The notes under the pieces: model-generated
Databases searched by the model: none
What the model was told of the DNA's origin: nothing
What the model saw: only the letters and a program-made list of their open reading frames with translations
Shown here: one piece after another, positions 3,691 through 11,250 of the stretch
Numbering within the stretch: the stretch's first letter is position 1
How the letters are laid out: the number at the start of each line of letters is the position of its first letter
Source of the DNA: an uncultured Chloroflexia bacterium
GTDB lineage: Bacteria > Chloroflexota > Dehalococcoidia > Dehalococcoidales > UBA2162
DNA: 64,000 nucleotides
Direction of reading: 5' to 3'
NCBI GenBank assembly: GCA_963735055.1
Contig: CAVTJN010000005.1
Span: 5,804 to 69,803 of the forward strand
Program-made: the position numbers and the translations under genes

Positions 3691-3765
3691 GCGGAAGTAG
3701 TTCAGTGGTAGAACGTCTCCTTGCCAAGGAGAAGGTCGCGAGTTCGAATCTCGTCTTCCGCTCCA
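3691..3765 (+). tRNA. tRNA-Gly (anticodon GCC), CCA encoded
   Basis: Hand-folded cloverleaf. Acceptor GCGGAAG/CTTCCGC, D arm GTTC-AGTGGTA-GAAC, anticodon arm TCTCC-TTGCCAA-GGAGA, T arm GCGAG-TTCGAAT-CTCGT, then T-CCA. Confidence 0.95.
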
Positions 3766-3773
3766 CCCCACAA
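3716..3773. repeat. attL: 58-bp direct repeat covering the 3' two-thirds of tRNA-Gly plus 8 nt
   Basis: tctccttgccaaggagaaggtcgcgagttcgaatctcgtcttccgctccaccccacaa is identical at 3716-3773 and 11102-11159. Confidence 0.85.
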
Positions 3774-4602
3774 CCAATTTCACTCTCAAACGTTCACAAA
3801 ACGTTCACAAGATTCCTGTCTGTTTACCAGTGAACTACTGACCGATTTTCTCAAGGCTCGACCGCAGGGCACGACTCCCAAGAGCATCTCAACCTATCAC
3901 TACGCACTGGACAACTTTGTAGGTTGCCCGTTCACTGCCGAGGGAATAACCGACTATCTGTCTGCCCTAACGTGTAGAAACGGAAAGCTCAAGTTCTACT
4001 CGTGTCTGAGAACTCTGTGCAACTGGCTGCATCGGACCGGTTTCATTTCACAGAATCCGATAGAGTTGGTGCCCGTGCCCAAGACTCAGAAGAGACTCCT
4101 TCAAGCAATCACCAAAGACCAGTTCGAGACTATCCTTGGCTCTTGCCGCTGTGACAGGGATAAGGCTTTGATTTCGTTGCTGTGGCACTCGGGCATGAGG
4201 ATTGCTGAGGTCGTGAATGTCAGGGCAAGCGATTTTGAATGGGTTGAGGGTACAGTAGTTGTGCTGGGTAAAGGCAATCGCTTTCGAAAGGCTCTTGCGG
4301 GCAATGGCGCCGTCAGAAGCTGGTTCAGCAAGCACGTTACCTTCGAGATTTCCAAGGCTGGAGCCACAGTGATGCTCAGGCGCCTGGGCAAGTATTCGGG
4401 CATACACTGCAATGCTCACAGCTTCAGGCGTGGCTTCTGCGTTCAGCAAGTGAAGTCTGGCCTGTCCACCCGTGTAGTGCAGTCACTTGGAGGCTGGGAA
4501 AGCATATCGATGGTTGAGAGATACAGCAAGTCACTGTCCTTCGATGAGAGTCTCAGACTCTACAGGCTGAAGAACGCTGAGACACAAGCTGTCCTCAGTT
4601 AG
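3774..4602 (+). CDS. Tyrosine recombinase/integrase, catalytic part (putative Int(C) fragment; no in-frame start codon of its own)
   Basis: Catalytic signature present: GMRIAEV (R), HSFRRG (HxxR), GGWESISMVERY (Y). The ORF is open from 3721 through the att core. There is no ATG/GTG/TTG in frame between the core and the conserved N-terminal region. The only one is a TTG in the tRNA anticodon loop. Confidence 0.8.
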
Positions 4603-4695
4603 GGCGGATGGGAAAGCCTTGAGATGGTGCAGAGGTACACGAGGTCAATGACGTTTCAGGATAGTGTCAGTTTCTGTTGGGCTCCGACGTCCTAA
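4603..4695 (+). pseudogene. Relic of a second integrase C-terminus
   Basis: Directly after the integrase TAG stop and in the same frame: GGWESLEMVQRYTRSMTFQDSVSFCWAPTS*. This parallels GGWESISMVERYSKSLSFDES of the intact gene, 114 nt upstream. Confidence 0.6.
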
Positions 4696-5185
4696 AGGGC
4701 GTGGGTCCGTCTTTCACTGTGTCGCCCTGCACAATTCGAAGCATGCCCGTCGAATCCTCGCACGTAAAGTAGTAACTGAACCCGGTAGGCCTAGACGAAG
4801 TGACCGTCCATTGGCCGGAGCGCAATTCTTGGTCTTCCGTCATCTCCCGCACCTCGATGAGCCAATTGCCTGCTTCAACCTTTCGCCACGCAAGCCGTTC
4901 TCTCGTTGGTACCGATTCAGCCTTCTCTAGATATTTGGCACTCACCACTTCTCCGAAGAACTTCGTGCGACTTGACGAGCCTTCAGAACCTATGTAGTTG
5001 ACACTCAGTACCTGTCGAACCCGCTCAATGACCTCGTCAGCAGTCTTCGTAGGTCGTGGAGTTTTCCCACAGCCAATGGCGGACATGAGCACCGTGGATA
5101 GCACCGCTAGAACAACAACGAACGCTGTCAACGTTTTCTTCATATGTCTGGCCAGACGGTAAGATGGCTGGGTTGCTGAGCTCAT
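4667..5185 (-). CDS. Hypothetical lipoprotein (island cargo)
   Basis: MKKTLTAFVVVLAVLSTVLMSAIGCGK is a signal peptide plus lipobox. The start is uncertain (5185 or the MKK at 5143). Confidence 0.55.
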   Translation of the reverse strand: MSSATQPSYRLARHMKKTLTAFVVVLAVLSTVLMSAIGCGKTPRPTKTADEVIERVRQVLSVNYIGSEGSSSRTKFFGEVVSAKYLEKAESVPTRERLAWRKVEAGNWLIEVREMTEDQELRSGQWTVTSSRPTGFSYYFTCEDSTGMLRIVQGDTVKDGPTPFRTSEPNRN

Positions 5186-5360
5186 GCCCCTCTCAGGTGA
5201 CTCAATTCTCAGGCAGGTCGTAGTCTCTCGCTCACTTTCACCAAATTGAAGGGGCTTCAGCCTCGTTTGTCAAGACCCTCCCTCCCACGATGCCCAGCGA
5301 CCCCTCGTTACCTTGAGATATTGCCGTCAGCGGTTCAAGAGCAAAAAAGGGCACCAATGT

Positions 5361-5705
5361 CTAATTCGCATTGTCAGCTGCCCTCTTTGCCTCGGCTGGA
5401 TTATCAGCGATGGCAATCACTGCTCTGTAGTAGGTCCTCTTCTTACTGCCTCTTACTCCGAAGTCGCCTTCAGCCAGAAAGAACTCGCCACTTGAGGCAG
5501 AAGACGGGTCGTCAAAATTCTGCGAAATGGGGAGTCCATAATTACTAACCTGCACGATGAGAGATTCGAGCACTCTTACCATGTTGTTTCTAAGTTGTGA
5601 GTCCGTCAGCATCAAACTGCTCCTTGGCCAAAGTACCTGATTATCGCACAAGGCGGTGGCCAGAGTAATGACGAGGCCAACCACCAAGGTCAATAGAACC
5701 GACAT
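5361..5705 (-). CDS. Hypothetical protein with an N-terminal signal/TM segment
   Basis: 114-aa ORF starting MSVLLTLVVGLVITLATALC. I recognise no family. Confidence 0.4.
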   Translation of the reverse strand: MSVLLTLVVGLVITLATALCDNQVLWPRSSLMLTDSQLRNNMVRVLESLIVQVSNYGLPISQNFDDPSSASSGEFFLAEGDFGVRGSKKRTYYRAVIAIADNPAEAKRAADNAN

Positions 5706-10226: not shown

Positions 10227-10387
10227 TGGTGCCCCACCATTCGCACAGATTTCCGCTCAGGTGTGACGGGCCTGAGCTCAGCACTGCGAATCTGCTGGTT
10301 TTTCCTAGACCACGGCACAATTCTAGCACACCATATTCTCGTCAGGTGACTCGTTTGGACTCGTGCGAAATTGCCTGCCATAAGGAC

Positions 10388-10416
10388 TTGACAACAAACT
10401 GATCAGAGTCTACAAT
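10388..10416 (+). promoter_or_regulatory. Sigma70-type promoter TTGACA-N17-TACAAT, followed by a tandem ACTGTAAC ACTGTAAC
   Basis: TTGACA at 10388-10393 and TACAAT at 10411-10416. The octamer repeats are at 10419-10426 and 10427-10434. AGGAGGAGGG Shine-Dalgarno site, then ATG at 10451. Confidence 0.6.
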
Positions 10417-10450
10417 ACACTGTAACACTGTAACAGGAGGAGGGAATGAA

Positions 10451-10891
10451 ATGCCTACAATCAGGATTGATGATGATGTCTACGCTTGGCTCAAGTCGCT
10501 AGCAACTCCTTTCGAAGATACGCCGAACACAGTACTCCGTCGCATTGCAGGGCTGGATGGAACAATCTGCCACATGCCCAGAGTACACGCCGAGCAAGCC
10601 AAGGTGCGTGACGAGACGCCGACTGAGGTCAAGGACAGAGTCGTTGGAAGAACCACGGGCAAGTACCTCAACGAATTATGGAATGTTGGAGCTGCCCACG
10701 CCCTTTACCATCACGACGGCACATTCTATGAGAACCTACGCACTTTTCCCGGCGCTCTGTTTGACTACCACGGATTCGTCGTCTTCCAGAACGAGGCTGA
10801 GTACACGTCTTGCCCCTACTTGAACATTGGGGAGAAGTTGAACGTCCATCAGGGAATAAAATCCATCCCTAGGTACAAGAGCATAAGATAA
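10451..10891 (+). CDS. Hypothetical protein with an N-terminal ribbon-helix-helix / SeqA-N-like segment
   Basis: Strong Shine-Dalgarno site. The N-terminus MPTIRIDDDVYAWLKSLATPFEDTPNTVLRRIAGL resembles SeqA-N/RHH-type openings. I do not recognise the C-terminal part (HHDGTFYENLRTFPGALFDYHGFVVF). Confidence 0.55.
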   Translation: MPTIRIDDDVYAWLKSLATPFEDTPNTVLRRIAGLDGTICHMPRVHAEQAKVRDETPTEVKDRVVGRTTGKYLNELWNVGAAHALYHHDGTFYENLRTFPGALFDYHGFVVFQNEAEYTSCPYLNIGEKLNVHQGIKSIPRYKSIR

Positions 10892-10941
10892 AGGCCGGGA
10901 AACCAGCGCAAGAGAAGACCAAGACAGAGGAGGGCAGAACA

Positions 10942-11250
10942 ATGAAAAACATGAGTCTAAGTAGAATCGCCGAGGAGGTCGGAATCAGTAAGTCCTACCT
11001 TTCGATGTTGATGTCAGGGCAAAGAGAGATGACGCTGGATTTGGCAGCCAAGCTGAAGCCATTTCGTTCACAACTTTTTGTGAACACTTCAGGCACAGAA
11101 TTCTCCTTGCCAAGGAGAAGGTCGCGAGTTCGAATCTCGTCTTCCGCTCCACCCCACAATCGATCGCTCGCTGAACGTTCACGATGCCAGTCACGCGCTG
11201 CGGGGGAAACATTGCCCGCTGTTGCCCAAGTCATGAGCCCCCGACGCTGA
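10942..11250 (+). CDS. HTH (XRE-like) ORF that reads through attR; putative Int(N) fragment of the partitioned integrase
   Basis: Sequence MKNMSLSRIAEEVGISKSYLSMLMSGQREMTLDLAAKL. There is no stop before the 58-bp core. The core is read as SLPRRRSRVRISSSAPPHN, the same frame as the integrase ORF at attL. The last ~30 codons are chromosomal. Confidence 0.6.
   Translation: MKNMSLSRIAEEVGISKSYLSMLMSGQREMTLDLAAKLKPFRSQLFVNTSGTEFSLPRRRSRVRISSSAPPHNRSLAERSRCQSRAAGETLPAVAQVMSPRR
11102..11159. repeat. attR: second copy of the 58-bp tRNA-Gly 3' repeat
   Basis: Identical to 3716-3773. Confidence 0.85.

Follow-up and report, generated by a model that had tools for sequence, protein, structure and literature searches.

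The 64-kb stretch of DNA analysed here (64,000 nucleotides (nt) of contig CAVTJN010000005.1 from an uncultured Chloroflexia bacterium; hereafter the window) carries an island with a tyrosine recombinase gene at one end and a helix–turn–helix (HTH) open reading frame (ORF) at the other, which we propose are the two halves of a single integrase gene. The island begins within the sole tRNA gene of the window, a tRNA-Gly(GCC) at 3691–3765 on the plus strand (ARAGORN; Rfam RF00005, 75 bits), the integration target (attB). A 58-bp direct repeat bounds it. The first copy, the attL core (3716–3773, +), extends from the anticodon stem of the tRNA to its 3′ end and 8 nt beyond, and is repeated without mismatch as the attR core (11102–11159, +); the identity can be extended at neither side. 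With the repeat included, the island (3716–11159) measures 7.4 kb, and the stretch between the two copies 7.3 kb. Its GC content of 0.49–0.53, a coherent dip against 0.57–0.64 in the flanks, marks it as being of foreign origin. Among the flanking host genes are those for an RNase II/R family exoribonuclease, a MATE efflux transporter, family-5 ABC substrate-binding proteins, CoA-transferases and a dimethyl-sulfoxide-reductase-family enzyme. Because these are ordinary bacterial genes, the host is bacterial, as an initial annotation of this sequence had held.

The recombinase gene, int(C) (3774–4602, +), encodes the remainder of a linker, a core-binding domain and a tyrosine recombinase catalytic domain (PF00589). 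Its frame is open from a stop codon at 3709 to the stop at 4600–4602 and continues upstream through the attL core, and the only in-frame ATG, GTG or TTG before 4066 is a TTG at 3721, which falls at positions 32–34 in the anticodon loop of the tRNA. No Shine–Dalgarno sequence was found in the window upstream of near-cognate CTG or ATC codons or of any candidate int(C) start, and a consensus scan gave no promoter-like site upstream of int(C). Start signals are present only at the opposite end of the island. There, int(N) (10942–11101, +) supplies a Shine–Dalgarno sequence, an ATG, an HTH_3 domain that is conserved in 12 other elements, and the left (P) arm of the attachment site, which together make up the first 53 integrase codons. 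The ATG at 10942 is preceded by GAGGAGGG, and the ORF crosses the attR core into a host-encoded tail of 29 codons and a stop at 11248–11250 (11160–11250, +). A putative sigma-70-like promoter, TTGACA-17-TACAAT (10388–10416, +), recognized by consensus match at 11 of 12 positions, sits upstream of int(N) and of an ORF of 146 amino acids (aa; 10451–10891, +) that directly precedes int(N) in the same direction and has no significant Pfam match.

The core is translated as SLPRRRSRVRISSSAPPHN in both ORFs, which share one frame across it. Joining 10942–11159 to 3774–4602, as in an excised circle, gives 1,047 nt without a stop codon, or 348 aa, in which the core occupies codons 54–73. Every sequence statement of the initial annotation, from the exact repeat and the lack of a usable int(C) start to the shared frame across the core, is thus confirmed, and its expectation that Pfam would recover a recombinase and an N-terminal DNA-binding domain in one polypeptide was borne out: residues 2–38 of the fusion match HTH_3 (E = 1e-5) and residues 185–326 match Phage_integrase (PF00589; 69.4 bits against a cut-off of 27.1, E = 4e-19). 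The catalytic residues R215 (SGMRIAE), K239 (GKGNRFRK), H288 and R291 (HSFRRG), W314 (GGWES) and Y323 (VERYSK) are all present, and the catalytic-motif residues are invariant in family alignments of 22 and 33 sequences. An AlphaFold2 model of the fusion has a helical N-terminal domain (residues 1–37; predicted local distance difference test (pLDDT) score of about 70–80) and confident core-binding and catalytic domains, which flank, with the N-terminal domain, a stretch of pLDDT below 50 at residues 38–79. That stretch is exactly the part encoded by the arms and the core.

Within the joined gene, the core is flanked by copies of the heptamer GTTCACA. In the window, the right (P′) arm is a tandem pair inside the int ORF (3792–3798 and 3803–3809; 3792–3809, +), which all 12 reconstructed attP sites have at the corresponding position, and the left arm is an inverted pair, GTTCACA/TGTGAAC, 17 bp left of the core (11066–11085, no strand assigned). 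Left-arm copies of GTTCACA lie 10–25 bp from the core in all 12 reconstructions, in direct or inverted orientation and usually paired, the set being partial in two loci (L024 and L172); the right arm carries the tandem pair GTTCACAAAAGTTCACA 15–45 bp from the core. GTTCAC, the first six bases of the motif, occurs 41 times in 1,680 nt of element-side arms, a 39-fold excess over background, and a single time in the 1,680 nt of host-side arms. That sole host-side match among the 12 loci, AACGTTCAC at 11173–11182 of the window, 14 bp beyond the right edge of the attR core, could be a coincidence or be left over from an earlier element. Four of the six GTTCACA copies in the 64-kb window are the two arms, and no sites were found elsewhere in the island, so a role as operator elsewhere in the island was rejected. 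A conserved SQ(K/T)FT peptide arises because the GTTCACA pair lies inside the ORF and encodes part of it. From sequence, we infer that GTTCACA may be an arm-type binding site for the conserved HTH domain or for an excisionase (Xis)-like protein.

A search with the fused protein returned 481 relatives, and a profile search of a 5.8-billion-protein set returned 509 family members; among the best 120 relatives, identity to the fused query was 55–79%, and they come mostly from Chloroflexota, class Dehalococcoidia. Close homologues of the catalytic part do not have a start and N-terminus of their own. What the databases give as their N-termini is translated tRNA (VAHTGFEPVISSLRGRCPKPLDECA and AVECLLAKEEVASSNLVFRS, for instance), because gene callers extended a startless frame back to any start codon in or beyond the tRNA, and several of the loci have no canonical start. 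Hundreds of Chloroflexota entries named XerC, XerD or tyrosine recombinase (P0001–P0120 and similar) are mis-annotated with such a tRNA-derived start. A scan of one genome per GTDB species identified 53 close loci, nearly all in Dehalococcoidia metagenome-assembled genomes (MAGs), 44 of which contain the 5′ end of int. A tRNA gene adjoins the open int frame in 37 of these 44 (ARAGORN; Rfam adds two partial tRNAs), and the frame remains open into the tRNA in 34 of the 37, a stop codon intervening in L021, L040 and L049. Between the upstream stop and the conserved int domain, an ATG is essentially never present, and seven loci have no canonical start at all. Nine tRNAs serve as targets, in either orientation: Gly-GCC, Gly-TCC, Glu-CTC, Ala-TGC, Ala-GGC, Val-CAC, Val-TAC, Met-CAT and Arg-TCT. 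Elements of the Glu-CTC type use the 5′ half of the tRNA as their core, and in the tRNA-Gln(CTG) loci L121, L144 and L151 the whole tRNA gene lies at the int(N) end, antisense. The family thus uses either tRNA half and either orientation, which is unusual among tRNA-targeting integrases.

An HTH ORF, M(K)Q.ELA..LGISKSYLSMILSGQR..., precedes the second core copy in the frame of int at ten loci (L002, L004, L005, L006, L007, L011, L013, L024, L035 and L052). With the window and two further loci (L172 and L173), elements are therefore bounded by int(N) and int(C) in 13 cases, and in all 13 loci with both junctions and a recognizable HTH ORF the halves join into one uninterrupted ORF. The joined ORFs (all 11 main reconstructions plus L172 and L173) are 324–363 aa long, with a conserved N-terminal HTH; int(N) has an ATG and a Shine–Dalgarno-like sequence in 13 of 13. 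In other repeat-bearing loci the N-terminal ORF is decayed or absent, being frameshifted in L015 and missing in L021. L172 and L173 are also tRNA-Gly islands with the same split, such as the initial annotation had proposed to look for. They share the window's tRNA-Gly(GCC) target and orientation, but in their int(C) the core is read in a frame shifted by one (AKEEVASSNLVFRS), a shift that their int(N) shares. The frames of the two halves co-vary, because in these loci both shift together relative to the window, and we regard this as the strongest single test of the frame link. Agreement of frame at a single locus has a chance probability of about 1/3; for at least eight independent core/frame types it is (1/3)^8, or about 1.5e-4, on frame alone. 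Seeding a metagenome scan with int(N) gave 80 loci, 64 of which hold int(N)-only ORFs of 65–158 aa with tails variable in length and sequence, the other 16 running off the contig. Homologues of the HTH ORF do not end before the core: of the 76 metagenomic copies with enough sequence, 65 enter a tRNA fragment (median 45 nt).

Islands of the family are plasmid-like, 2.5–8 kb in size and without virion genes. Their cargo varies; what they have in common is int and, in five or six loci, a Xis-like ORF, and a P-loop ORF of about 320–330 aa is common to the islands at L002, L004 and L024. Truncated, frameshifted and miniature islands (0.9–3.7 kb) are frequent, and such small or decayed islands are consistent with one-way trapping. 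At L024 (2563–2637, 9876–9923 and 16086–16679), elements are stacked at one tRNA-Met, and 7.3 kb separate the int(C)-side core from the intact tRNA upstream of it; at the other end, the int(N)–core segment continues in frame into the N-terminal portion of another integrase-like ORF (197 aa). Tandem arrays of this type could regenerate hybrid int genes. L007 (CAZWDF010000155.1, 1–3398) is a 3.3-kb mini-element whose 44-bp cores lie 11 bp from each contig end; its bin is labelled Candidatus Saccharibacteria, and it is probably a mis-binned Dehalococcoidia contig.

One member of the family is intact. P0006 (324 aa) contains both Pfam domains uninterrupted, and the core-encoded peptide SLRGRCPKPLDECAT separates its HTH from the catalytic body, in a layout colinear with that of the L004–L007 reconstructions. 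Its contig (L001, 1,817 bp, from a Joint Genome Institute (JGI) metagenome) has no tRNA gene and carries an HTH_17 (excisionase-like) ORF that overlaps the int start. An uninterrupted full-length homologue, which the initial annotation had suggested looking for on plasmids or viruses, thus exists; IMG/VR viral contigs, PLSDB plasmids and INPHARED phages held no close relative (identity at most 32%). An exhaustive phmmer search of 1.84 billion representatives with P0006 gave no second full-length representative, all matches being int(C)-type proteins or int(N) ORFs standing alone. As only one intact copy was found, we conclude that integrated copies dominate the assemblies.

We propose, with high confidence, that the island at 3716–11159 is a small integrative element with attP inside its integrase ORF, and that integration split the gene. 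In the free form, one gene would encode a 348-aa protein in which a Cro/CI-type HTH is joined by a linker of about 40 residues to core-binding and tyrosine recombinase catalytic domains. The DNA encoding the linker would itself be the attachment site, with one GTTCACA arm pair, the 58-bp tRNA-identical core and a second GTTCACA pair. Recombination with tRNA-Gly would then split the gene, leaving the promoter, Shine–Dalgarno sequence, ATG and HTH of int(N) at attR, reading out into host DNA, and the startless core-binding and catalytic domains of int(C) at attL, against the tRNA. Because the start signals and HTH sit at the opposite end from the catalytic body, the integrated copy should be unable to make full-length integrase; it should still be able to make a free HTH peptide, which may act as a regulator or repressor. 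On this model the fusion would be the active integrase and the halves inactive, and excision, much as the initial annotation had suggested, would depend on functional enzyme supplied by a copy that is episomal, in tandem or related. The predicted disorder of the linker could explain why completely different core peptides are tolerated, and with that the variety of tRNA targets, because a tRNA segment might then need no more than one open frame to serve as the core.

Gene-splitting integrases have been reviewed as confined to archaea, and our full-text literature searches for split, partitioned or suicidal integrases likewise returned archaeal cases only. The architecture described here resembles that of the Sulfolobus spindle-shaped virus (SSV)-type integrases (SSV1/SSV2, pTN3 and pT26-2; PF16795) in having attP within the integrase ORF near its 5′ part, a tRNA gene target with a 40–60-bp identity block, int(N) and int(C) at opposite ends with the catalytic domain in int(C), and a compact int–attP module found in varied elements and abundant as integrated, decaying copies (PMC8371274, PMC7253208). 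The present family differs in being bacterial, mostly from Dehalococcoidia, and in having a Cro/CI-type HTH as its N-terminal part, with an HTH_17 Xis-like ORF often preceding the gene. By both sequence and fold, the best solved-structure matches of the fusion are Pyrococcus XerA (4a8e), XerD (1a0p) and the mycobacteriophage Brujita integrase (5vfz). PF16795 gave no match to the fusion even at E ≤ 1, and SSV1 Int was absent both from the Protein Data Bank sequence matches and from the top 50 fold matches. With a host outside the Archaea as well, membership of the SSV family was rejected. The likeness to archaeal suicidal integrases is convergent, because the enzyme is a Xer/Brujita-like PF00589 protein and not a PF16795 protein; the SSV-type label given in the initial annotation stands for the architecture but not for the ancestry. 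The two-domain core-binding/catalytic fold and the catalytic-motif residues are shared with Xer recombinases (XerA, XerC and XerD) and with classical tRNA-targeting phage integrases, but Xer enzymes are unsplit and target dif sites, and classical integrases have attP beside int rather than inside it.

The closest bacterial analogue is the integration-dependent immunity of actinophages, a close precedent that the initial annotation missed; its view that no such split had been described in bacteria is upheld by the literature searches. In these cassettes, the promoter Prep drives rep, which encodes an HTH repressor, and then int; attP lies inside rep, and upon integration Rep is truncated and int loses its promoter (PMC3694055, PMC4557955). 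The cassettes of BPs, Brujita and Charlie (clusters G, I, N and P, and Gordonia phages) share with the present family a bacterial host, a co-directional promoter, an HTH ORF that holds the attP core, a small tyrosine integrase without an arm-binding domain, and the truncation or alteration of the HTH protein on integration, together with the separation of int from the promoter. The integrases are distantly related, with Brujita Int as the top fold match and identities of 24–26%. In the phages, however, rep and int are two cistrons with a stop and a start of their own, and int stays intact, whereas the present family has a single ORF and a startless int(C). No counterpart of the GTTCACA arm pairs has been described for these phages, and the present elements are without virion genes. 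Homology between int(N) and the gp41 repressor of Gordonia phage Walrus was considered and was not supported (hhalign probability 4%). In myxophage Mx8, which is also bacterial, attP lies within the int coding sequence and integration generates a recombinant int (IntP/IntX; PMC6070905), but the exchange is confined to the 3′ end and leaves the prophage with an active enzyme of altered specificity (PMC6070905), whereas here the catalytic body loses its start and N-terminal domain. An Mx8-type overlap is not what we found, as the core sits at codons 54–73 of 348 and not at the 3′ end of int. The present family combines the logic of both better-known systems, with the integrase gene destroyed as in SSV and a free HTH peptide released as in integration-dependent immunity.

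Could the two halves instead be two genes? A two-cistron cassette of the actinophage type, in which an HTH repressor carries attP in its 3′ end and a separate integrase, translated from its own non-canonical or unrecognized start, stays intact so that integration alters the repressor only, would have the gene order seen here: promoter, HTH, attP core and a small integrase of about 270 aa, as in BPs, Brujita and Charlie and in Walrus gp41/gp40. The Brujita integrase (5vfz) is the best structural match, weak tblastn matches in the phage collection are to integrases of such phages, and an in-frame GTG lies near the start of the conserved region in some family members (the tRNA-Met type, L004, L025, L027 and L041). 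We nevertheless regard this explanation as unlikely. The phages keep rep and int as separate genes (in Walrus, the gp41 and gp40 cistrons are 130 bp apart and in different frames), but a stop codon between HTH and int is absent from 13 of 13 reconstructions and from the natural intact copy, and the frames of both halves change together. Between core and conserved domain there is no ATG and often no canonical start, nor is there a Shine–Dalgarno sequence before any candidate start in the window. It is less probable still that the window holds the remnant of a dead element that lost the 5′ end of its integrase and whose HTH ORF is an unrelated neighbour, sharing the frame by coincidence. The insertion sequence, stray integrase C-terminal fragment and rearrangement scar in the window island (described below), the one-in-three chance of frame agreement at one locus and the many truncated or frameshifted family loci (L015, L021, L037, L038 and L050) would all suit such decay. 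At the family level this explanation is already contradicted: the split and the conserved HTH recur in 12 further loci with at least seven further core/frame types, an intact version exists, and the int(C) of the window is full length, with catalytic-motif residues that are invariant across the family. Least probable of all is a false attL and attR created by contigs mis-joined at repeated tRNA sequence. Short-read assemblies do break at tRNA-derived repeats, and many related contigs end at or near the core, but the architecture is seen in dozens of independent assemblies made by different pipelines (MEGAHIT, SPAdes and JGI), including long contigs of 40–290 kb, and the window is continuous over both junctions, across which the GC dip is coherent. 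Chance agreement of frame and assembly artefact were therefore both rejected, on family recurrence and on the independent assemblies.

Several observations weigh against a gene split by integration. Neither the 509 family proteins nor the 80 metagenomic int(N) loci include a second intact copy, and the 1.8-kb L001 contig could be a junction between tandem elements rather than a circle. The GTG near the conserved region of some members could permit separate translation of Int(C), which keeps a complete Xer-like two-domain body and, judged by this, might be active if translated. The window copy itself may be dead, since it contains an insertion sequence and rearrangement scars and has no counterpart of the Xis-like ORF that some relatives carry. 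We favour, at a confidence somewhat above even, the broader interpretation that the elements carry the first bacterial family of self-splitting (suicidal) tyrosine integrases, independent of archaeal SSV and probably a repressor–integrase fusion of a cassette like those of integration-dependent immunity. Placing attP in a disordered linker would make a portable module for at least ten tRNA genes, and integration would be a one-way switch that converts an HTH–integrase into a free HTH regulator and abolishes integrase production.

The remaining content of the window island is a mixture of cargo and decay. A DDE transposase ORF (7140–8330, +; Pfam DDE_Tnp_1, E = 4.5e-20), which also matches DDE_Tnp_1_6 and is probably part of an insertion sequence, lies between two ORFs with GIY-YIG domains (6469–6945, + and 8497–8958, −). 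An AAA_25 P-loop protein (9003–10226, −; PF13481, E = 6e-20) is a candidate replication or maintenance gene and does not cluster with ORFs of other islands. No Xis-like HTH_17 ORF was found when sought in the island. In frame straight after the int(C) stop lies a diverged remnant of a second integrase gene (4603–4695, +), its last 30 codons reading GGWESLEMVQRYTRSMTFQDSVSFCWAPTS up to the stop, compared with GGWESISMVERYSKSLSFDES in int(C), which suggests either an older tandem integration followed by a deletion or that recombination has replaced int(C). A 22-nt sequence, AGGGCAGAAYAARCCAAAATCG, is present both at 5732 and at 8299 (20 of 22 positions identical), and its first half recurs in the Shine–Dalgarno region of int(N) at 10931; continuing the first copy, 5746–5764 is a perfect 19-nt inverted copy of int(C) 4219–4237. 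These related repeats (5732–5764, 8299–8320, 10931–10952 and 4219–4237), of which the direct copies at 5732 and 8299 bracket the GIY-YIG/transposase segment, look like the scar of a rearrangement between element copies.

Outside the island, an ORF just upstream of the tRNA (2682–3569) has a signal- or lipoprotein-like N-terminal part, a Thr/Pro/Ala-rich region of 15-nt repeats (3273–3377) and two CxxCH motifs (CATCH and CKACH), and probably encodes a membrane-anchored dihaem c-type cytochrome. The RNase II-like protein (15035–16519) has its closest named relatives, with about 75% identity, in MAGs of Thermodesulfobacteriota or Deltaproteobacteria; on the evidence of this one gene, the host of the window may be a Thermodesulfobacteriota rather than a Chloroflexota, and the host range of the family may cross phyla.

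The splitting of the integrase gene is a family-wide phenomenon, known in archaea and approached in bacteria by integration-dependent immunity. Its occurrence here removes what was supposed to be an archaeal hallmark, one formerly used in arguments on the evolution of archaeal mobile elements, along with its link to hyperthermophily, and indicates that gene splitting is a convergent solution. It also exposes a systematic annotation error, in which XerD or XerC proteins are given tRNA-derived starts and the matching int(N) ORFs are recorded as small HTH proteins. The compact int–attP module, which tolerates a target-defining segment as a linker, is a possible scaffold for retargetable integrases. 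The family also points to a mobilome in Dehalococcoidia, a group that is hard to manipulate and for which it offers an initial candidate on which genetic tools could be based. The family stands between the archaeal suicidal integrases and the integration-dependent immunity of mycobacteriophages, and suggests an evolutionary route between them.

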